NCBI RefSeq assembly: GCF_913778135.1
Contig: NZ_CAJYVU010000046.1
Coordinates: 3,928 to 67,927 of the forward strand
DNA length: 64,000 bases
Source: an uncultured Sphingomonas sp.
Lineage (GTDB): Bacteria > Pseudomonadota > Alphaproteobacteria > Sphingomonadales > Sphingomonadaceae
Direction: 5' to 3'
Positions 14,027-32,525 of this stretch are shown one piece after another. Every line of letters starts with the position of its first letter. Positions within the stretch are counted from its first letter, which is position 1. The position numbers and the translations under genes were made by a program. The notes under the pieces were generated by a model. That model was not told where the DNA came from. It ran no database searches and saw nothing but the letters and a program-made list of their open reading frames with translations.

Positions 14027-14102
14027 GCCCAGGTAGCTCAGTTGGTAGAGCATGCGACTGAAAATCGCAGTGTCGGCGGTTCGATCCCGTCCCTGGGCAC
14101 CA
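14027..14102 (+). tRNA. tRNA-Phe(GAA)
   Basis: 76 nt, GCCCAGG/CCTGGGC acceptor stem, anticodon arm TGCGA-CTGAAAA-TCGCA (GAA at 14060-14062), GGTTCGATCC T loop, encoded CCA. Confidence 0.98.
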
Positions 14103-21196: not shown

Positions 21197-21211
21197 GAAC
21201 GTTGATGGAAC
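21197..21211. promoter_or_regulatory. Alphaproteobacterial LexA (SOS) box
   Basis: GAAC-GTTGATG-GAAC; reverse strand reads TTTGTTC-N7-GTTCT; lies in the divergent intergenic region. Confidence 0.75.
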
Positions 21212-21269
21212 AAATTCCCGTGTCTGAACGCCGGTGCAGCTCGGGTGGAAAAGCGAGGATGACTTTCCG

Positions 21270-21764
21270 ATGGCAAAGCGTCGCCACGTCTTTATCAGCC
21301 ACCACCATGCCGACGACGCCCACGTCAGCGGCCTGACCGACATGCTCAAGCGCAACGGTCATGAGATCCGCAACAGCTCGATCCGCGCCAAGCCGGCCAA
21401 CCAGCGTCGCCTGGATGAGGGCCGCGTGAGCGACAATGCCATCAAACGACTGCTGCGGATGAAGATGAATTGGGCGTCCACGGTCGTAGTGCTGATCGGC
21501 AAGCAGACTCACGCGCGACCGTGGGTCGATTGGGAGATCAGGAAGGCGCACGAGCTGGGGAAGCGGATCGTCGGTGTCTACGAGCGCGGCGGGCGCGAGA
21601 ACGACATTCCGGATGCGTTCAAGAAGTACGGTGACGCCCTCGTCGGCTGGAACTCCGACAATGTGATCGGTGCGATAGACGGCACGTGCTCCCCCTTCGA
21701 ACGACCAGATGGCGGATCGCGCGCCACCTCTGGTGACGGCGCGCGGAGCAGCTGCGCCGCCTAA
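21270..21764 (+). CDS. ThsB-like TIR protein (DUF1863 type)
   Basis: RHVFISHHHADD, STVVVLIG, RPWVDWEIRKA, IVGV. Confidence 0.88.
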   Translation: MAKRRHVFISHHHADDAHVSGLTDMLKRNGHEIRNSSIRAKPANQRRLDEGRVSDNAIKRLLRMKMNWASTVVVLIGKQTHARPWVDWEIRKAHELGKRIVGVYERGGRENDIPDAFKKYGDALVGWNSDNVIGAIDGTCSPFERPDGGSRATSGDGARSSCAA

Positions 21765-22414
21765 TGCCGCACGTCCACGTCTACGCTGTCAGCTACGACC
21801 TAGGCTTCGCGCCGAACCCGTTCGGCGGCGTGTGCAGTCTGGCCTGCTGCAAGCCGGAGATCAGGAGGACCGCGCAACTCGACGACTGGGTCGTCGGATT
21901 GACCAGCACCAAGCTCCCACCAGCGCTGCGGCTCGTGTTCGCAATGAGGGTCTCTAGGATCAGCGACTTCGACGAATACTGGAGTTCGGCGGAGTTCGCC
22001 GGTCGAAAGGCGGCCCGCAACGGTTCGCAGAAGGCGCAGGTGGGCGACAACATTTACCATCGCGACAGACCCGAAACCGACTGGATCCAGGAAGATTCAG
22101 TGCACAGCCTTCCCGGCGGCCTGCAATGCGATCTTAATCGAGATCACGACACGCGCGTGAACCGGATCCTGCTGTCCGACCACTTCCTCTACCTCGGTGA
22201 TCAAGCGCGCGCCGTCCCGAATGAGATACTCGTCGAGCTAAAGTATTGGAAGAATCCGCGTGATCGCCGCAAATTCACGATGGAAGAGGCGGCGGACCTA
22301 ATTGGGTGGATCGAAGGGCTGAAGGCCGCCGCGGCAGCATCCGTCGTCGGCGATCCCATCGACTTCGACAAAACCGGCAAGACGTTCTCCTACGTCGGGC
22401 AGAAGATGATTTGA
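21764..22414 (+). CDS. Nucleotide modification associated domain 2 (Nmad2)-like protein
   Basis: YDLGFAPNPFGGVCSLACCKP.IR, LVFAMRV, GDNIYH, LLSDHFLY; TAATG overlap with TIR stop. Confidence 0.75.
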   Translation: MPHVHVYAVSYDLGFAPNPFGGVCSLACCKPEIRRTAQLDDWVVGLTSTKLPPALRLVFAMRVSRISDFDEYWSSAEFAGRKAARNGSQKAQVGDNIYHRDRPETDWIQEDSVHSLPGGLQCDLNRDHDTRVNRILLSDHFLYLGDQARAVPNEILVELKYWKNPRDRRKFTMEEAADLIGWIEGLKAAAAASVVGDPIDFDKTGKTFSYVGQKMI

Positions 22415-24103: not shown

Positions 24104-25050
24104 CGCCCAACATCACGACCGACCTCCGGATCCGCCTCGTGCAGACCCTCGCTAAGCGCAATCCGGGCGCCCGCGTTGCGATAGTCGGCTGGTCGACGGC
24201 GGCCATCGAACTCGCTGCCGATCCGATCTTCGCGGAGGGGGCCGCGACGCTCATCGGGCGATATGCAGCGCAAACGGGCGGCTCCATCCTGCCCCTCTCT
24301 GAACTTGCGTCCGCGATCCCAGACGTCGTCGTCGTCGCGGAGGACGACGGCAAAGAGCCCCTCCTCAAGGCGGTAGCGAGGCTGGTTCCCGCGACCACAA
24401 CCATCGTTATCGCCGGCTTCGGTCACTTCGCCTTTCGTGACGAGCTGTTCGACCGCGTCCGGCGCGACGCTCTCATCCCCTCTTTCGCAAACGGGTATCC
24501 CAATTGCCTTGTGCACATTTACCAGTGTCTGAGGAACGCCCGCGCGCGAGGCCTGACCGGCGTTGTGGCGGAGTTCGGCATGTTCAAGGGCGGCACCACC
24601 ATGCTCATGTCCCGCTTCATCGAGGAACTCGGCGCCGACTGGAAGGTGATTGGCTTCGATACGTTCGATGGCTTTCCGTCGAAGCGCAGCCCACTGGACA
24701 TGTACGCTCATCCTGACTGCGTATTTCTCGACGTGGGCACCCTGCGCGCCATGTTCGCAGGCCGCGACGTCGAGATCGTCGAGGGAGACGTAGTGGAGAC
24801 ATGCGCGCGTCTCAATGACGAGCGGCTCGTGCTCTCTTTTGTGGACACGGACAATTACACGTCGGCCAATGCGATCCTGGCAGTCATAGCGGATCGCACT
24901 CAGGTGGGTGGCGCCATCGTGTTTGATCATTGGACAGGCGTCGATCGGTACCTCGACACCATTGGCGAGCGGATAGCGGCGATGACTCTGGCCGCGGATC
25001 GACGCTACTTCAACCTGCACGGCACCGGTGTATTTCTGAGGCAGGAATGA
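24100..25050 (+). CDS. TylF/MycF-family O-methyltransferase with N-terminal Rossmann-like domain
   Basis: VAEFGMFKGG, GFDTFDGFP, VEGDVVET, FVDTDNY, GGAIVFDHW. Confidence 0.82.
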   Translation: MTPNITTDLRIRLVQTLAKRNPGARVAIVGWSTAAIELAADPIFAEGAATLIGRYAAQTGGSILPLSELASAIPDVVVVAEDDGKEPLLKAVARLVPATTTIVIAGFGHFAFRDELFDRVRRDALIPSFANGYPNCLVHIYQCLRNARARGLTGVVAEFGMFKGGTTMLMSRFIEELGADWKVIGFDTFDGFPSKRSPLDMYAHPDCVFLDVGTLRAMFAGRDVEIVEGDVVETCARLNDERLVLSFVDTDNYTSANAILAVIADRTQVGGAIVFDHWTGVDRYLDTIGERIAAMTLAADRRYFNLHGTGVFLRQE

Positions 25051-26159
25051 GCGCAACCGGCAGCCATTTCGTGCGGCGCGTACCGCCGATGCCACGCGCC
25101 GGCGTCTACGACCTGTACTGGCAGTTCGCATCAAAGCGCCAAGCGGCGTTCGAGGCCCGGCTTGCGGGCAGCTGCTGGCCTTGGTCGCCCGACCCGATTC
25201 TGCAGACCTTCAAGTTCTGCAATGTTTATCGTGCAGCCGACCGCGTGTCACAATACCTCATTCGGCACGTGGCCTACGACAACCATCCGGAAACGACGCC
25301 TAGAGACCGCGTTTTCCAGATCACGGCCTTCCGCACGTTCAGCAAGATCGCGACGTGGGAGGGGGTAGTCGATGAGCTGGGCGGTCCACCGATGCTAGAG
25401 CACCTCCGCTCCGGCGCATTTGAGACGGCGCTTGACCAGGTCAGGGCGCGCAACGGCGGTCTCTATACAGGTGCCTTCATCCTATGCGCCAACAAGGCCT
25501 TCGGCTTCCAGGAAAAGCACCGAAATCACATTGCGTTGTTCAAGCACATGTTCCTAGAGAGCATGTGCGCTGAACGGGTCCTACAGTTGCCTTCCCTACG
25601 CGGCGTTGTGGAGCTGCTGCAGAGCTTCCCGCTGCTCGGGCCCTTTATGGCGTACCAGACCGCCATCGACATCAACTACTCTGAACTGACGGCATTTAGC
25701 GAGAACGACCACACCCAGGCCGGCCCTGGCGCGCTCCGCGGCTTAAAGAAGGCCTTTATCCACCTGGGTGACCATTCGCCGTCCGACGCAATTCTGTGGA
25801 TGGTCGACAACCAGGAAGCTGAATTCGCACGCTTGGACCTACCGTTCCAAGGGTTGTTCGGTCGGCCTCTGCACGCGATCGACTGCCAAGGTCTGTTCTG
25901 CGAACTCGACAAGTACTGCCGCGAGGCCGTGCCGGACCTGACCAGCGCGAGGAGCAGGATTAAGGCGCGGTATCGCGGGTCAAACGATGCTATCGATCTG
26001 TTCTTTCCGCCCAAGTGGAAATTGTTCACCACGGCCGGCATACCTGCGGCGCACATCAAAGTGCTCGGCAATCGATCGGTTATGCGGCCGAGGATAGCCA
26101 GAAGCCATAGCCGCGACGGCCGGGGAATGCGCGACCTCTTCGATACCGCGCGAGACTGA
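25047..26159 (+). CDS. 5-hmdU DNA kinase-like helical domain protein (aGPT-Pplase1 family)
   Basis: PWSPDPILQTFKFCNVYRAADRVSQYL, FRTFSKIATW, AYQTAID, GPGALRGL, FCELDKY. Confidence 0.8.
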   Translation: MSATGSHFVRRVPPMPRAGVYDLYWQFASKRQAAFEARLAGSCWPWSPDPILQTFKFCNVYRAADRVSQYLIRHVAYDNHPETTPRDRVFQITAFRTFSKIATWEGVVDELGGPPMLEHLRSGAFETALDQVRARNGGLYTGAFILCANKAFGFQEKHRNHIALFKHMFLESMCAERVLQLPSLRGVVELLQSFPLLGPFMAYQTAIDINYSELTAFSENDHTQAGPGALRGLKKAFIHLGDHSPSDAILWMVDNQEAEFARLDLPFQGLFGRPLHAIDCQGLFCELDKYCREAVPDLTSARSRIKARYRGSNDAIDLFFPPKWKLFTTAGIPAAHIKVLGNRSVMRPRIARSHSRDGRGMRDLFDTARD

Positions 26160-26408
26160 GCCGGATGCGGGTGCTCGCCAAATGAACGAATGAGTGTTTG
26201 CAGCGGGCGCCACGTTAAAGCGGACACGCCGATTTCCACCAATCCAAGCAGTTAACGTTTCGTCAAATAACTACCAAAATGATCGCATCGTTGCACATTT
26301 GATTGGTTAGAAGGACAACACCGTCATTCTGATGAGCTATTCATTTTCACACCAGCCCGTTTGCTTAATGGCAGACCCATTATCTGCCTCAGATACTTTC
26401 TTAAAATG

Positions 26409-26663
26409 CTAGGTGGACGGCGTTAAACCACATCGATTTAAAGCTGCAAGCTCCTTCTTGGTCATACGTCTGCCAACTATCCTACTGCTGGTAAACTGCC
26501 CAACCCTGCGCTCTGCCATGATTTCTGCCACAACCTCTCTCGCCGTTTTTCTGTTCACGACATGGATCGTCTTTTTGCGGCCGGGATCTGCCAAGATCCG
26601 CTTGAGCTTCTCACTCAGACGCACCTCCACCTGGACCGGGTAGATTTTCGCTGCGGGAAGCAC
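26409..26663 (-). CDS. Small basic hypothetical protein
   Basis: Last ORF of a co-oriented run; no recognised motif; start uncertain. Confidence 0.4.
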   Translation of the reverse strand: MLPAAKIYPVQVEVRLSEKLKRILADPGRKKTIHVVNRKTAREVVAEIMAERRVGQFTSSRIVGRRMTKKELAALNRCGLTPST

Positions 26664-26692
26664 GCGAGCAGATGCTTAATAGATGCCTGCTG

Positions 26693-27367
26693 TTATTCAC
26701 CAGCGGCATCCCGACGAGCCGCTTCAAACTCAAGAAGGGAGACTTCGATTAGAGAAATCTGTTCAAGTGGGTAGTAACGTTCAGCACCCTCAACACAGGA
26801 GATTTCAACGAAGTTGATCTTGTCATCGTCTTCGAGTTCGAGGAGCGCAATGAGGTTAGTTCGATTGGCTTCGTAACTGATCGAGGTACCGTTCCGAAAA
26901 TGGATCGTCGTGTGACGTAGATACTTAACGAGCTCCTCCTGTCGGTCTGTGAATCCTGCAGTATCGATTATTGACGCAACTTCGGCGCGTGCACTCAGCG
27001 TGTTAGATACTTCAAACTCCGGATCACCTTCTGCCCACAATGACATGAGCCTGTAAGTTTCTATGGGTAGGCCAGCATAGTCGTTAAAGGGTCCATCGCA
27101 TGGGTGGTCGCCTTTAGGCCAATAATCTCCATCATCGAGCAGCGAGATCATCGGCATCTGAAGCAGGTCGACAATAAGCAGCCGGTTATTCAGAGTTTCG
27201 ATGATGGAGATGCCACCAATCGAGGAGCGCAGCCGCCTGCGTACCTGCAGCTCCGTTTCTTCTGAGATCGGAAACCAAGCGGAACGTTGCCGCCTAGGAC
27301 CGCGTAAGCCGAGATGGCCAGAGAAGCCCGCCCCGAGACCTTCACGAGTTGTCCTTCCTACTTTCAT
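26693..27367 (-). CDS. Hypothetical protein
   Basis: 224 aa ORF with ATGA overlap to the upstream ORF. Confidence 0.6.
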   Translation of the reverse strand: MKVGRTTREGLGAGFSGHLGLRGPRRQRSAWFPISEETELQVRRRLRSSIGGISIIETLNNRLLIVDLLQMPMISLLDDGDYWPKGDHPCDGPFNDYAGLPIETYRLMSLWAEGDPEFEVSNTLSARAEVASIIDTAGFTDRQEELVKYLRHTTIHFRNGTSISYEANRTNLIALLELEDDDKINFVEISCVEGAERYYPLEQISLIEVSLLEFEAARRDAAGE

Positions 27368-27930
27368 AGGACCTCGCAGATGAAGAGCGCACCAGGCAAA
27401 GCACGCTTCAGAGTCTCGGCATAGCGAACTGCATCAAACCGGTATGAAAACCCATCGGACGTCGCAGCAGATACGGCAGTCGCATCGCCAGCTGCGATCA
27501 GCTTCTTCTCCGTAGAAAACACCATAAAGGCAGCCTCACCGCGCTCCGCGATGCTCATTTCCCGCTCGAACCATCGTTTGCGCGCTGGCTCCGTCATGGC
27601 TGCGAACGATTGCTTGAACGCAGCCATCTTCTCCCCAGCCCCTTCTACACGCCAGCTGGTCAAGTCGCATGACAAGTGCCCGAGCGCCGCGTAGACAAAC
27701 CTTCCCAAAGCAGGAGTCACAATTCCTACGGGAATCCTCGCCTGAACAGCGTCTGCGAGAGCCATAAGACCGATACCCGCAGCCACATCAGTTTGAAGCG
27801 AGCTATTTGGTACGGCGCAACGATACGCGTGATGAAGGTTTTCGCCACGCACTCTCGACAAATCAACCAAAGTCCTTAATTGCCCGTGCGGGATATTATA
27901 TTGGCTAATTTTAGCCTTTAAAGATTCCAT
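27364..27930 (-). CDS. Hypothetical protein
   Basis: GGAG RBS before ATG 27930; coupled to the next ORF. Confidence 0.6.
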   Translation of the reverse strand: MESLKAKISQYNIPHGQLRTLVDLSRVRGENLHHAYRCAVPNSSLQTDVAAGIGLMALADAVQARIPVGIVTPALGRFVYAALGHLSCDLTSWRVEGAGEKMAAFKQSFAAMTEPARKRWFEREMSIAERGEAAFMVFSTEKKLIAAGDATAVSAATSDGFSYRFDAVRYAETLKRALPGALFICEVL

Positions 27931-27970
27931 CCATACACTCCTTCCAAAACACCTTTGCACCTGGTGCGGT

Positions 27971-28174
27971 TTACTCCGCCAACACGGCGATCAGCTGACA
28001 CCTCGGCGCACTCACAAGCGCCTCCGAAGCGATAAGAGACCCGCCAATCTCCAGATCCTTCACGCGCAGACAGCGCGAGCGAGCCATTTCCAACGAAAGC
28101 TCATCCAAGCTTCGCGCGGCAGCCTCCGCCACAATCGGCTGAGAAGACCCAATCAACGATATTGATACCCTCAA
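27971..28174 (-). CDS. Small hypothetical protein
   Basis: 67 aa, GGAG 7 nt upstream of the GTG start; first gene divergent from tnsA. Confidence 0.5.
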   Translation of the reverse strand: MRVSISLIGSSQPIVAEAAARSLDELSLEMARSRCLRVKDLEIGGSLIASEALVSAPRCQLIAVLAE

Positions 28175-28330
28175 GCTTCACTCCTTAACTTCCTAGCACA
28201 ATCACTCTAGCAGCAGAGCGTCTTTGAAATAGATAACGCATCCCGGCCTTGTCAACGCGTTACTTGTGTTTAGTTTGCGCAGGTGACCCTGTTAAGGTTA
28301 ACGGAGCAAGTGTTATTATGGATTGTCTAC

Positions 28331-28404: not shown

Positions 28405-29244
28405 ATGCAGACAGCTCCCACCATCGACCTACGCCGAGCAGGCGGTGCGTTCACAAAATCCGATTCGCCGGTCTTTGATGCGACTTCCAAACAATCGCTC
28501 CAGTCGGCGACTGCAGCAGCTCGTGATTTTAGTGGGCTGGCTGTTGAGCGGATTGTGATCGTCCGCGCACCCGACCGGGACCAGTTGCGGGGCCAGATTA
28601 CCGGTACGAAGACGGTTCGTACGCTGAGCTATCCCTCACGGAAAACGCAGCGCGCGCGCTTTGCTGAAGGAGCCGCCGAGTTCGAGCGGATCGAGGCTGA
28701 AGAGGTTGAAGTCGCGGTTGTCGACGGCGTTGCGCAGCCGATGCGCATCGAAGCGCTAGTTCATACCCCCGCGGGTCCGAATTGGCTTTCCCATATTCCC
28801 GATTTCGCGACGCTTTACGCGAATGGAGAGCGTGCACTTGTCGACGCCAAGCGCGTGTGGAGTGATTTTCGGAAGCCGCTCGGTTACAAACAGACATTCC
28901 TTGGGCAGCTCGCCGCCGACATGATGGGGTACCGCTACGAGCGAATTATCCTCGGGAGCGCTGGTAGCGACGTGCGCCGTCGCAACATCAATGAGGTGCA
29001 GGCAGCACGCTTCGTGCACGTTCCCGATCACCTCGCGGCACGGGCCGCACTAATCCTCAAAGCCGGCGGCATTTCACTTGGCCACTTGAGTGACCTTCTT
29101 CACCCCGCAAACGGCCGCGCGATGGTTTTCGCGCTCATGGTTCGCCGCTTGGTAGAGATCGATCTGGATCGCCCCTTAGGGGTCAACAGTGAATGTCGTG
29201 CAGTGCCCGCCCTGCCCTCCGCAATGCCAAGCATCCGTCACTAG
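28405..29244 (+). CDS. tnsA: TnsA-like PD-(D/E)XK endonuclease
   Basis: SRK...AQP.RI...HIPDF...ALVDAK; first gene of the tns operon. Confidence 0.75.
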   Translation: MQTAPTIDLRRAGGAFTKSDSPVFDATSKQSLQSATAAARDFSGLAVERIVIVRAPDRDQLRGQITGTKTVRTLSYPSRKTQRARFAEGAAEFERIEAEEVEVAVVDGVAQPMRIEALVHTPAGPNWLSHIPDFATLYANGERALVDAKRVWSDFRKPLGYKQTFLGQLAADMMGYRYERIILGSAGSDVRRRNINEVQAARFVHVPDHLAARAALILKAGGISLGHLSDLLHPANGRAMVFALMVRRLVEIDLDRPLGVNSECRAVPALPSAMPSIRH

Positions 29245-29322: not shown

Positions 29323-31542
29323 ATGAGTAAGAACTCCATCAATGGCGCCATTGGAGCCACGTTCATCACAGGTGCTGGTGAAAAGCTTCTTGTTGAGCGC
29401 GAGCTCGGCGACGGACATCTTTACGTCATAACGGTACCCGGTGGCGCTCTCTACCGGACACAGGACCAAACGACTGGCGATCTTCTGCTGCCGGACACCA
29501 ACTGGCTTGAACGTGGCCTGTCAGACGGATCTTTGCGGCTTTATAACGCGAATAATAGCGGCATCGCACCCGAGCGCAAGCTCGCTAAGGTCTTCGACCG
29601 TGACGCCATCCTCACGCTTGATCCGTACGCTGAGGCGCGCCTAGCTGTCATCTCAACGCTCATCGAACGCGGCATCTCCTCGGCTGGTCCGCGACTTGAA
29701 GCCGAGATCAGGAGGGCTTGGACCGATGATCTTGAAAAGAAGCATGGCCCGTGTCCTGAGGTCGGAACCGTTCGGACTTGGTTTGGCCGGTGCCGCGGCG
29801 ACTCCTGCGATCTTGCTGATATGCTCAGCATGTCAGGACGCGTCCCGCGCGCGAACCGTCTTGCTCCGGCCGTCGAGACAATCATCGAAGCTGCTCGCAA
29901 CCGCTTCTGGAGAAGTCGCGGATGGAAGATCATCGACGTTCAGGCCGAGGTTAGCTCGGAGATTTGCAACGCGAATCGGCAACGTCTTCTCGTCGGCGAG
30001 CCCCCGCTCAGGATTCCTGGGAAGGAGACAATTCGCCGCCGGGTGAACGAGCTGCTCTGCCGAGATACTTACGCCGACAAGTACGGCGAGCCAGCTGCGC
30101 GCCGCAAGTTCGACGGTTCGGGTAAAGGTATCTCCGCCTCTCGCATTCTTCAGGTCGCACTGATGGATGACACGGTCGTCGACCTCGTCACAGTCCTGGA
30201 CATGGATCGCGGCCTGATCGCGGGCCGTCCCTACCTGAATGTTCTGATGGATGTGCACTCACGGTGCATTCTCGCCGTCACCGTCAGCTTCCAACCACCT
30301 ACGGTCGACAAAGCAGCGGAGTGCATACGTATCGCGCTGAACTGCGTTCGTGAAGGAAATCGACCCAAGGTCAACCTGCGCCCGGAATGGCTCCAGCAGC
30401 ACCCCGGTCTTGCAACAATAAATGGCAAGCCCGCCAAGGTCATCACTGACAACGGGTTCAACTACGTAGCGCCGGCCTTCACAGAAATGATGCTCGACCT
30501 CGGTATCATTCACGAGCTCGCGCCGGTGAAAGCGCCGCGTCACAAGGCGATGATCGAACGCTTCTTTCGCTCCTTCAACACCTTCCTGATCGACAAGCTT
30601 CCGGGCGCAACCCTCGATCCCAGCATTCTACGCAAGCTTGGTATCGATCCCACAAGTGAAGCAATCGTATCGATGTCCGAGTTAACGGAGCTGATCGAGC
30701 GCTTCGTCTACATCTATCATATCACCCACCATAGCGGAATCGATACCGCTCCGTTGCAAAAGTGGAGCGCCAGCATGGCTGTTCATGGACGAGACATGAT
30801 CTTGGACAACCGACAGATCGATATTGTTACCGGCATCACGGTACACAACAAGAGGATTACTGCCGGAGGTGGTGTACGAATGTTCGGCATGATCTGGAAA
30901 GGCGCCGGGCTTGACCGCGTTATCGAGGCACTTGCCGCGAAAGAGCCACACCGCAAACGTCTGGACGCCACCGCAGCCGTCACAACCAAGATCAAGTACA
31001 ACCCTGAGAATCTTCTTCACGTACTCGTCTACGTTGGCAACGACTGGATTGAGCTAGAGAATACTCAGCCAGACTACGCCGCTAACCTGTCACTGTGGCA
31101 TCATCGCCAAATCCGCGCTTGGTCCAAGAGCCAGTCTCTAGCGTTTGCGAGCGATGCCGATCGGCTGGCTGCCCGCCACTCGCTCAATCTGGCGATCCGT
31201 GATGCGTTTCCCGAGATGCCCGCGCGCGAACGCCGCGCCGCAGCACGCCTGCTTGGGTCGCGTAGCAAGGCCGAACCCGCCCACGCAGTTGATTTTGCCG
31301 ATGCGCCGCCGCGCCACGACGGAATGGCTTCCATCATCCATCACGACGTACCGGCGAACACCCGTAGAGATGCTCACCGAGCGATGAGCCGCCCGATCAA
31401 GAGTGATGACGTTTCCGTGCATTTTGACGAGGATGAAAGCGGCAACGCGGATAACGAAGCTCCGCTTCTCAAACCCAGCATCCCGCTCGTTGAGCTTTCG
31501 GACTTCGACGCGGATGATCTTGACGATGAGGAGTATCGTTGA
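29323..31542 (+). CDS. tnsB: TnsB-like DDE (Mu-type) transposase
   Basis: LMDDT (D), MDVHSRCIL, ITDNG (D), PRHKAMIERFF (E). Confidence 0.9.
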   Translation: MSKNSINGAIGATFITGAGEKLLVERELGDGHLYVITVPGGALYRTQDQTTGDLLLPDTNWLERGLSDGSLRLYNANNSGIAPERKLAKVFDRDAILTLDPYAEARLAVISTLIERGISSAGPRLEAEIRRAWTDDLEKKHGPCPEVGTVRTWFGRCRGDSCDLADMLSMSGRVPRANRLAPAVETIIEAARNRFWRSRGWKIIDVQAEVSSEICNANRQRLLVGEPPLRIPGKETIRRRVNELLCRDTYADKYGEPAARRKFDGSGKGISASRILQVALMDDTVVDLVTVLDMDRGLIAGRPYLNVLMDVHSRCILAVTVSFQPPTVDKAAECIRIALNCVREGNRPKVNLRPEWLQQHPGLATINGKPAKVITDNGFNYVAPAFTEMMLDLGIIHELAPVKAPRHKAMIERFFRSFNTFLIDKLPGATLDPSILRKLGIDPTSEAIVSMSELTELIERFVYIYHITHHSGIDTAPLQKWSASMAVHGRDMILDNRQIDIVTGITVHNKRITAGGGVRMFGMIWKGAGLDRVIEALAAKEPHRKRLDATAAVTTKIKYNPENLLHVLVYVGNDWIELENTQPDYAANLSLWHHRQIRAWSKSQSLAFASDADRLAARHSLNLAIRDAFPEMPARERRAAARLLGSRSKAEPAHAVDFADAPPRHDGMASIIHHDVPANTRRDAHRAMSRPIKSDDVSVHFDEDESGNADNEAPLLKPSIPLVELSDFDADDLDDEEYR

Positions 31543-32525
31543 TGTCGAACAGGCTCAGAACCGTGGTTTTCAGCCCCTCCGAGCTGCTTCCACAGACGGG
31601 CAGCCCTCAACCGGATGTAAAACCCCGAAAGTTGGTCGCTCTCGCTTCGCGCGATCAGATAATACGGTCGATCTATATTCAAAATCCGAACCACACGCCC
31701 GTCTTTAAATCCCTTGACCTGGTTCTTAGCCTCGGTGTCAAAGGTGTTTTTCAGACTGGTGTTCGGAACGCCGCACCAAGTTTCGCAGGGAAGAGCGCGT
31801 CTGCGGATGAGTTCGCGCGGATCGTAGAACGGCGCGAGACTTACCCCAAGGAGACCAGCCCAGTTGTCCGGGTGGAGCTCGAGCAGGCATGCACGTCAAG
31901 GCGCTTCTGGTCGACAATCCTCGGAAAGTATGGCGACGGCTTCACGGCTTCGAAGGACGAGGAAGGATTGCGTCGCAGCACCTACGATGCCTTTGAGCGT
32001 CACGGGACGAAGCTGCTGATCATCGACGAGGTGCAACACGCCGGATACCGATCCAAGGGTTCCTCCGCACCGACCGACGTTATCAAGCGCTTCATCTCCG
32101 ATGCACAGGTTGGCGTCGGGCTGTTCGGCAACGAGCAAACGCTCGAGCTTCTCCAATCCAATAATCAACTGAGCCACCGGTTGCAGGAACCATGCGACAT
32201 CAAGCCGCTCGACATCACTGAGCCATCCGCCTTGCCGAGATTTGGAAAGTTCCTTGCCGACTACGACGATGCCCTGATTGCAAACAAGCTCTTCACGACC
32301 AGCCTGCCTCTTCGCGATGCACGGGTTGCGGGTTGCCTGATGACTATCGCTAGTGGCTTTCTCGGCAGAGTTGTCACGCTGCTGCAGATTGCAGGGCGGC
32401 GAGCTTTCCTGCGCGGCGCGACTTCGATCGAGTTGCACGACCTTTCGCATGCCTCTACGTCGTGGGCGGTCCAGCAACGGCTAACGCCGCACGACCCTTT
32501 TCGGTTCGGCATTGCAGGTGGCTAA
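31539..32525 (+). CDS. tnsC: TnsC/TniB-like AAA+ ATPase
   Basis: Walker A APSFAGKS, Walker B LLIIDEVQH, QLSHR; ATGA overlap with tnsB. Confidence 0.88.
   Translation: MMSNRLRTVVFSPSELLPQTGSPQPDVKPRKLVALASRDQIIRSIYIQNPNHTPVFKSLDLVLSLGVKGVFQTGVRNAAPSFAGKSASADEFARIVERRETYPKETSPVVRVELEQACTSRRFWSTILGKYGDGFTASKDEEGLRRSTYDAFERHGTKLLIIDEVQHAGYRSKGSSAPTDVIKRFISDAQVGVGLFGNEQTLELLQSNNQLSHRLQEPCDIKPLDITEPSALPRFGKFLADYDDALIANKLFTTSLPLRDARVAGCLMTIASGFLGRVVTLLQIAGRRAFLRGATSIELHDLSHASTSWAVQQRLTPHDPFRFGIAGG

Follow-up and report, generated by a model that had tools for sequence, protein, structure and literature searches.

A PF18723 protein with a predicted DNA-glycosylase fold and a conserved Cys-Glu pair in a DS-4-like operon of an uncultured Sphingomonas sp.

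What does a PF18723 protein do in a bacterial genome in which no 5-hydroxymethyldeoxyuridine (5-hmdU) DNA kinase family is matched, when the family is named after the helical domain of that kinase? The question is raised by a 370-residue protein encoded in a 64,000-nucleotide stretch of an uncultured Sphingomonas sp. genome (contig NZ_CAJYVU010000046.1, positions 3,928 to 67,927), referred to here as the window. The PF18723 gene is the fifth and last gene of an operon that encodes, in order, a TIR protein, Nmad2, a thymidylate synthase (TS)-like fusion enzyme, an O-methyltransferase and the PF18723 protein. Its sequence argues that the protein is not a kinase. Modelling predicts an HhH-GPD DNA-glycosylase fold and relates the protein, as a distant paralogue by structure, to the phage amino-acid:DNA transferases. 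With moderate confidence, we propose that it is a catalytic enzyme acting on the 5-hydroxymethyl-uracil moiety supplied by the TS-like enzyme of the cassette, that Cys285 would add to C6 of the base, and that the product would harm phage replication.

Family membership, predicted fold and candidate active site

The protein matched Pfam PF18723 (HMUDK_hel) with an E-value of 3.9e-91 (305.7 bits against a cut-off of 25 bits, profile positions 3-279 of 281), and also matched phrog_2396, a phage family of unknown function, at 6e-54. The motifs DPIL, FKFCNVYR, DRVS, GPGALRGL and FCELDKY are located at residues 49, 55, 65, 226 and 284, respectively. The initial annotation, made from the sequence letters, had quoted these family motifs (DPIL..FKFCNVYR..DRVS, GPGA.RGL, FCELDKY) and named a PF18723 match as the check on its assignment; all of the motifs are present and the match was found. 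It was also right that the protein has no P-loop. No Walker A motif and no second Pfam domain were found in the single-domain protein, and in phage M6 the kinase is a separate P-loop protein, gp54. The protein was not matched by NCBIfam or PADLOC, nor by PF18724, the amino-acid:DNA transferase family, at E-values up to 1. The source genome (99.2% complete) carries one PF18723 gene and no match anywhere to PF18724 or to PF18748, the P-loop 5-hmdU kinase family. A kinase reading was rejected on the absence of a Walker A motif and a second domain from the protein, and of the P-loop 5-hmdU kinase family from the genome.

The family name derives from fusions such as gp186 of Bacillus phage SP10, a 637-aa protein that is a proven 5-hmdU DNA kinase (PMC8989533) and whose non-kinase half matches the PF18723 model in BFVD. 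With the 5-hmdU kinases (M6 gp54, SP10 gp186, ViI gp67/gp243), the window protein has only the PF18723 half or neighbour in common, whereas kinase activity resides in a P-loop domain that the window protein lacks. M6-like phages such as Churro encode a P-loop kinase of 187 aa, which has a Walker A motif, and, in a separate gene directly after it, a PF18723 protein of 323 aa. The Pfam name is misleading, as it suggests a kinase role that the present evidence does not support. The family was formerly called aGPT-Pplase clade 1, a label that is still found in several databases, and a glycosylase-like fold was originally predicted for the aGPT-Pplases (PMC8989533).

An AlphaFold2 model generated from 79 diverse sequences had a mean predicted local distance difference test (pLDDT) score of 90.8 and a predicted template modelling score of 0.89, and was ordered from about residue 15 to about residue 335. 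An exhaustive structural comparison with VIA-align returned QNG1/DUF2419 (7ugk) as the top match (Z 10.9, 235 residues aligned, root-mean-square deviation 5.5), followed by the 5-phosphomethyl-dU glycinyltransferase gp46 of phage PaMx11 (8z2m; Z 9.6, 226 of 287 residues aligned, root-mean-square deviation 4.5) and by more than 20 HhH-GPD DNA glycosylases with Z between 5 and 8.4. The caveat of this method on helical proteins applies here; however, the top 26 rows belong to a single superfamily and nearly the whole domain is covered. Unrelated folds start near a Z of ~4. Foldseek against the PDB gave E-values of only ~0.3-1, and its matches, QNG1 among them, came from the same superfamily, in weak agreement. 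In BFVD, the PF18723 proteins of phages SP10, PhiW-14 and phiRSL1, among others, were matched at E-values of 1e-8 to 1e-14 (TM 0.5-0.68), and after these an amino-acid:DNA transferase at 1.7e-3 (probability 1.00). Neither the protein nor its family profile had a sequence match in the PDB, solved glycosylases included. The model resembles QNG1 and the HhH-GPD glycosylases (AlkA, Ogg, EndoIII, MutY) in overall fold (Z 10.9 and 6-8.4, respectively). The protein has no sequence similarity to these enzymes and carries a conserved Cys, which is not characteristic of glycosylases. Nor was the classical HhH-GPD Asp/Lys signature identifiable; G-P-containing turns and an invariant D208 are present, which may or may not correspond to the HhH hairpin and the catalytic Asp.

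QNG1 is a glycosylase-fold enzyme that cleaves queuosine 5'-monophosphate, a mononucleotide, and its rank as the best structural match (Z 10.9) bears on an alternative that we consider doubtful, namely that the substrates of the protein are free (hydroxymethyl-)pyrimidine nucleotides, which it might cleave as an N-glycosidase in the manner of QNG1. It would then either deplete nucleotides or work together with the hydroxymethylase and the O-methyltransferase to produce a modified base or nucleotide in free form, which could poison phage replication or be used by the TIR enzyme. The recurrent partners of the family are all enzymes of the nucleotide pool (fusions to a Tmk-like deoxynucleoside monophosphate (dNMP) kinase, MazG-MazG_C as fusion or neighbour, and TS-like enzymes), and the combination of a hydroxymethylase, a glycosidase-fold protein and an O-methyltransferase recalls the logic of bacimethrin biosynthesis. 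However, the second structural match, the phage clusters containing TET-associated glycosyltransferases (TAGTs) or amino-acid:DNA transferases, and a fusion to a DNA methylase point to DNA, and the conserved Cys would not be needed by a glycosidase.

Conservation was assessed in an alignment of 79 sequences with 31-82% identity. The residues R31, R62, D65, F98, Q204, D208, G226, G228, G232, D279, E286, K289 and P321 were invariant, and C285 was present in 78 of the 79 sequences. The Cys-Glu pair is also found in phage proteins (LuckyBarnes, Churro, SKML-39), in a protein from a Lokiarchaeota metagenome-assembled genome (MAG) and in all of the fusion forms examined, and the window protein has the family-wide C-E-x-[DS]-K helix. 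The near family-wide pair and the conserved polar residues argue for a catalytic role; because the Cys and the Glu are kept in 78 and 79 of the 79 sequences, respectively, catalysis would be favoured over binding alone.

The same residues bear on whether the protein is instead a non-catalytic reader, close to what the initial annotation suggested, that recognises and flips 5-hydroxymethyl-uracil or another odd base in phage DNA, and presents it to partner enzymes or triggers TIR-Nmad2 as a sensor, which we regard as unlikely. The PF18723 domain held within the 637-aa kinase fusion of SP10 suggests a substrate-presenting role, gp55 of M6 is not needed in vitro for the kinase or transferase steps, the Saccharimonadales gene is solitary and lies beside dprA and topA, and members of the family are fused to enzymes as varied as a Tmk-like kinase, MazG-MazG_C, and NADAR with a DNA methylase. 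Against this, the near family-wide retention of the Cys-Glu pair and of over ten polar residues in members from phages, bacteria and archaea would be expected of an active site more than of a binding surface, and the ligand need not be phage-derived, as the cassette has its own hydroxymethylase-like enzyme.

The catalytic role that we prefer has a possible precedent in the phage transferases. In PaMx11 gp46, Cys247 and Trp146 clamp the flipped thymine and Cys247 is proposed to attack C6 (PMC11472151); mutation of the equivalent Cys or a nearby Glu in M6 gp51/ViI gp247 abolished activity (PMC8989533, PMC11472151). Alignment of the PF18723 and PF18724 profiles with hhalign was not significant (probability 2.3%) and serves only as a pointer to possible residue matches. 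In this weak alignment, C285 is placed on the catalytic Cys of the transferases and F200 on the base-stacking Trp, a correspondence to Cys247 and Trp146 that is suggestive and not proof. With the PF18724 transferases (M6 gp51, ViI gp247 and PaMx11 gp46/PUGT), the PF18723 protein shares its predicted fold, and both families are found in hmdU gene clusters; the residues that the weak alignment sets against the catalytic Cys and the stacking Trp are a conserved Cys within a C-terminal helix and an aromatic residue that follows a G-P turn. Unlike the PF18724 systems, the window operon has no P-loop 5-hmdU kinase to make a phosphorylated substrate.

The TS-like fusion enzyme and phage relatives

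The best PDB match of the TS-like enzyme was the cytidine monophosphate (CMP) hydroxymethylase MilA (6e-30) rather than housekeeping ThyA. The catalytic Cys is kept, and Asn is found at the position of the Asn by which TS is specific for deoxyuridine monophosphate (dUMP), where MilA has Asp. Because the enzyme is MilA-like with a uracil-type Asn, its product is likely to be a 5-hydroxymethyl-uracil nucleotide. Sequence identity with the phage TS-like enzymes of Churro (M6-like) and LuckyBarnes is 37-43%. The helical C-terminal domain of ~290 aa had no match in Pfam or in Foldseek. VIA-align placed the dimeric dUTPase 1w2y (Z 7.1, 143 residues) among generic helical matches, so that a MazG/dUTPase-like fold is only a lead; an atlas match to DUF1599 (Nmad1-like) scored 0.76, which is below the level that is meaningful alone. 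A Devosia MAG (L006:8204-9001) has an in-frame stop within the helical domain of its TS fusion, and this copy may be decaying or may reflect an assembly error.

PF18723 was matched by 486 phage records, and the closest phage relative of the window protein is that of Brevibacterium phage LuckyBarnes (35% identity). The LuckyBarnes genes gp41-gp38 (L049:1828-5843) encode a TS fusion of 517 aa, two TAGTs and then the PF18723 protein. The window operon is similar in that its TS-like enzyme shares the C-terminal domain of the phage fusion (identities of 43% and 28%) and is followed by a hydroxyl-modifying step and then PF18723. It differs in that the bacterial cassette has an O-methyltransferase where the phage has two TAGT glycosyltransferases, and the phage has neither TIR nor Nmad2. 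The cluster suggests that LuckyBarnes DNA contains a glycosylated hydroxymethyl-pyrimidine. In Salmonella phage SKML-39 (ViI-like; gp042-gp043, L048:1900-4059), a gene annotated as a 'MazG-like pyrophosphatase' directly precedes a PF18723 gene of 406 aa, a pair that mirrors the MazG link seen in bacteria.

The operon, its genomic setting and its distribution

The features of the operon and of the PF18723 protein are listed in Table 1. The last two junctions of the operon are four-base ATGA overlaps, that of the methyltransferase stop and the PF18723 start lying at 25047-25050, and a GAGG sequence is present 9 nt 5' of the PF18723 ATG. From this arrangement, the PF18723 gene is predicted to be translationally coupled to the O-methyltransferase gene. 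The ATG at 25047 is likely to be the true start, with homologues of 366-372 aa aligning from residue 1. The C-terminal tail is common to the closest relatives only, as just those at least ~63% identical cover 99-100% of the query.

Table 1. Positions in the window of the operon genes and of the parts of the PF18723 protein.
Feature	Position	Strand	Basis or remark
ThsB-type TIR protein	21234..21764	+	Pfam PF08937, 6.6e-21; end abuts Nmad2 start
Nmad2	21764..22414	+	Pfam PF18753, 2.4e-63
Thymidylate-synthase-family enzyme with helical C-terminal domain, 536 aa	22493..24103	+	Pfam PF00303, 4e-22
TylF/MycF-type S-adenosylmethionine (SAM) O-methyltransferase, 316 aa	24100..25050	+	Pfam PF05711, 7.6e-11; PF13578, 6e-8
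PF18723 (HMUDK_hel) gene	25047..26159	+	Open ORF (open reading frame), 370 aa
Folded domain, predicted HhH-GPD DNA-glycosylase-like	25104..25940	+	Residues 20-298 by Pfam
N-terminal conserved block DPIL..FKFCNVYR..DRVS (D49, N59, R62, D65, R66)	25191..25250	+	Invariant or near-invariant columns, 79 sequences
LLGPFMAYQTAIDINY and GPGALRGL blocks (G198, F200, Q204, D208, G226, G228, G232), hairpin-like region	25632..25745	+	Conservation
FCELDKY, candidate active-site helix	25896..25916	+	C285 in 78/79, E286 and K289 in 79/79 sequences
Basic C-terminal tail, residues 336-370	26052..26156	+	pLDDT 49-54 over last 30 residues

The initial annotation had described the protein as stand-alone. This is correct for its single domain; it does not describe the gene, the fifth in a conserved operon with its ATG overlapping the methyltransferase stop, and the defence context of TIR, Nmad2 and DS-4 (described below) had been missed. 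The accompanying statement that there is no downstream transferase agrees with the lack of PF18724 in the genome, but a transferase-type enzyme, the O-methyltransferase, is adjacent on the upstream side. The suggestion of a reader or processing enzyme fits the modelled fold, which is that of base-flipping HhH-GPD glycosylases. That this would be its role rather than a step in hypermodification was not upheld, as the gene appears coupled to an O-methyltransferase gene and follows a gene for a dUMP-type hydroxymethylase-like enzyme, and the LuckyBarnes relative lies in a cluster of a TS fusion and TAGTs.

The operon lies within a low-GC stretch of approximately 14.1-44.5 kb (53-64% G+C, compared with 66-71% outside), the start of which adjoins a tRNA-Phe gene (14027-14102), and it appears from base composition and gene content to be carried on a mobile island. 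Divergent from the operon are genes for a patatin-like protein, a nucleoside deoxyribosyltransferase-like protein and a second ThsB TIR protein, with a TIR-STAND-TPR gene upstream of these; downstream are Tn7-like TniA/TniB genes (29323-32525), a SRAP protein and an M48 peptidase. The G+C content falls to ~53% directly after the PF18723 stop (26160-28200), and the ORFs at 26693-27367 (-), 27364-27960 (-) and 28405-29244 (+) had no Pfam match; the ORF region at 26160-28200 is probably a separate cargo module that precedes the Tn7-like genes. A GTTC-N7-GTTC site resembling the alphaproteobacterial LexA box was present between the divergent operons (21197-21211), the count in the window being three against 1.8 expected, which is not significant by itself. 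Scans for consensus promoters and terminators in and around the operon gave no useful signal.

The setting raises the possibility, which we consider very remote, that the cassette is the remnant of a prophage cluster for self-modification, serving to mark the DNA of the element itself and having no role in defence. PF18723 proteins are characteristic of phages whose thymidine is hypermodified, as seen in the 486 phage records, and the cassette is on the low-GC island. However, a scan of island ORFs found no genes for phage structure or replication, TIR and Nmad2 regularly accompany the PF18723 gene, protection of E. coli by a homologous cassette is known, and the bacterial clade is 56-90% identical across phyla while being at most 35% identical to the phage copies. 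A prophage origin was rejected on the scanned island ORFs, which encode TIR-STAND-TPR, ThsB, deoxyribosyltransferase-like, patatin, TniA/TniB, SRAP and M48 peptidase proteins and include no phage structural genes.

The homologous cassette is the E. coli system DS-4 ('NTTI'), which consists of a thymidylate synthase, an adenylate-type dNMP kinase, a 340-aa PF18723 protein, a TIR protein and Nmad2 (DeWeirdt, Mahoney & Laub, Science 2026, PMC13092281). Its anti-phage protection was validated in E. coli via DefensePredictor, and the 5-hmU-kinase and TS domains are among those that its authors newly link to defence (PMC13092281). No mechanism is given for DS-4 (PMC13092281), and the likeness thus says little on the mode of action of the window operon. 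Four of the five DS-4 families (TS-like, PF18723, TIR and Nmad2) are encoded here by contiguous genes on the same strand, both systems are on mobile DNA, and the printed PF18723 sequence of DS-4 has the same motif blocks, including the C-E-x-D-K helix; the likeness was judged by shared families and motifs and not by a computed alignment. Unlike DS-4, none of the five window genes matched a dNMP kinase family, the TS-like enzyme has the extra helical domain of ~290 aa, a TylF-type O-methyltransferase is added, these two occupying the place of the kinase, and TIR-Nmad2 comes first in the gene order. By gene content, the window operon appears to be a variant of DS-4 without the dNMP kinase.

More than 5,000 homologues of the protein were recovered, those of the nearest clade being mostly 360-372 aa, and the family comprises ~3,600 clusters at 50% identity from many bacterial phyla, some archaea and hundreds of phages. 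Cassettes were compared at 45 loci from one-per-species genomes with PF18723 relatives 34-88% identical to the window protein, and partners were sought within 6 kb. All five genes were present in 12 of the 45 loci (Alpha- and Gammaproteobacteria, Acidobacteriota), with reduced versions in about 20 further loci. Eight loci from Actinomycetota had the five-gene set minus the methyltransferase, and four from Bacteroidota and Spirochaetota had TIR, Nmad2 and a plain TS; the latter, DS-4-like copies form a separate clade and are 34-35% identical to the window protein. A TS gene was near the PF18723 gene in 34 of the loci, Nmad2 in 31-33, and an adjacent O-methyltransferase in 26. In three loci from Burkholderiales (L009, L010 and L016, ~11.1-12.3 kb), TIR, Nmad2, the methyltransferase and PF18723 were kept, no TS-like gene was present, and MazG-MazG_C was encoded directly downstream of PF18723 in its place. 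These copies look like a module swap, because they are nested inside a TS-linked clade.

A further three loci, from various taxa, had an unassigned protein of ~250 aa in place of TIR-Nmad2. This domain, which has no Pfam match, occurs as an N-terminal fusion to PF18723 (P0152, residues 1-295) or as a neighbour, often replacing TIR-Nmad2 (L014:6699-7277, L031, L032, L038, L039, L050, L051, L054). No partner was detected in four loci from Saccharimonadota (L033:9986-10963; also L029, L030 and L037), where a PF18723 gene with 56-61% identity is found without the usual partners, lying in L033 between dprA/topA and a ZIP transporter gene. This solitary form implies that the PF18723 protein can act on its own. 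Other PF18723 proteins are fused to an N-terminal Tmk-like P-loop kinase, to a C-terminal MazG and MazG_C, or to NADAR and an N6/N4 DNA methylase, the last being combined in a single protein of 1007 aa (P0236). One protein of 586 aa (P0135) joins PF18723 to a helical domain of the type found in the TS-like fusion, in the manner of a Rosetta stone. PF18723 matches were found on 22 plasmids, and archaeal homologues in a Lokiarchaeota MAG (P0259) and on haloarchaeal plasmids (H59-H62).

In a quick tree of the family, with support from the Shimodaira-Hasegawa-like approximate likelihood ratio test (SH-aLRT) only, the window protein was placed in a supported clade of TS-linked copies, separate from a MazG-linked clade, a Bacteroidota clade and long-branched phage copies; the bacterial clade, at most 35% identical to any phage copy, stands on its own. 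Horizontal transfer is suggested because the branching does not follow taxonomy. PF18723 was found in nine of 400 other genomes sampled from the same class, spread over different families, and was not found in the one same-genus genome or the one same-family genome sampled. Nmad2 adjoined the gene in three of the nine.

Proposed function and its significance

In the catalytic role that we favour, the TS-like enzyme would make 5-hydroxymethyl-dUMP after induction or infection. The PF18723 protein would bind the 5-hydroxymethyl-uracil moiety, or an O-methylated form of it, in a pocket for a flipped-out base, where Cys285 would attack the pyrimidine at C6 in the manner of thymidylate synthases, C5-methyltransferases and the phage transferase. 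Attack at C6 could open the chemistry of the C5 substituent to exchange, elimination or transfer. The reaction would yield a base that is modified or damaged, either within phage DNA that is being replicated or among the pooled nucleotides, and this base would stop the phage from growing; the TIR-Nmad2 pair may form a sensing, signalling or NAD (nicotinamide adenine dinucleotide)-consuming arm. As to the substrate, the transferase relatives, the TAGT neighbours and the DNA-methylase fusion point to DNA, and QNG1, Tmk and MazG point to the nucleotide pool.

Several observations weigh against this proposal. To our knowledge, no PF18723 protein has a known biochemical activity. Sequence homology to the transferases is not significant, and the match of C285 to Cys247 is that of the weak profile alignment. 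By the same weak alignment, the metal-binding Glu243 and Thr244 of gp46 correspond to Gln281 and Gly282 (Asn in most relatives), so that unlike in PaMx11 gp46 neither the metal-binding Glu-Thr nor the glycine-binding Lys would be kept. A kinase that would activate the hydroxymethyl group is missing from the cassette. In the class sample, seven of the nine PF18723 genes adjoin MazG-MazG_C and none has a TS-like gene nearby, which suggests that the family need not always have a home-made hydroxymethyl pyrimidine. In M6, the kinase gp54 and the transferase gp51 suffice for the reaction (Lee et al., PMC8989533), and the PF18723 protein gp55 is dispensable in vitro for the kinase and glycine-transfer steps (PMC8989533). 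The protection listed for DS-4 against lambda in Table S7 is weak, with a -log efficiency of plating of 0.93 (~8.5-fold) and small plaques (PMC13092281).

The PF18723 family, the DS-4 system class (2026) and the predicted glycosylase-like fold of the aGPT-Pplases were already known. To this are added an argument against a kinase, a Cys-Glu pair found family-wide, a survey of how the cassette varies (kinase-free, methyltransferase-containing, MazG-swapped and solitary) and the parallel with LuckyBarnes.

PF18723 is a common element of several nucleotide-centred cassettes, one of which, DS-4, protects E. coli. The transferase-paralogue fold, the Cys-Glu pair and the kinase-free, methyltransferase and MazG variants offer handles on the mechanism of DS-4 and on the phage 'clade 1' gene. 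More speculatively, and with low confidence, the cassette could be an immune system that turns phage-style thymidine hypermodification on the invader: 5-hydroxymethyl-dUMP would be made on demand and would enter the fast-replicating phage DNA, where the PF18723 Cys enzyme and the O-methyltransferase would generate adducts or lesions that stop replication or packaging. If this were true, no cellular enzyme before PF18723 would have been shown to remodel the C5 substituent of a pyrimidine in DNA for defence.

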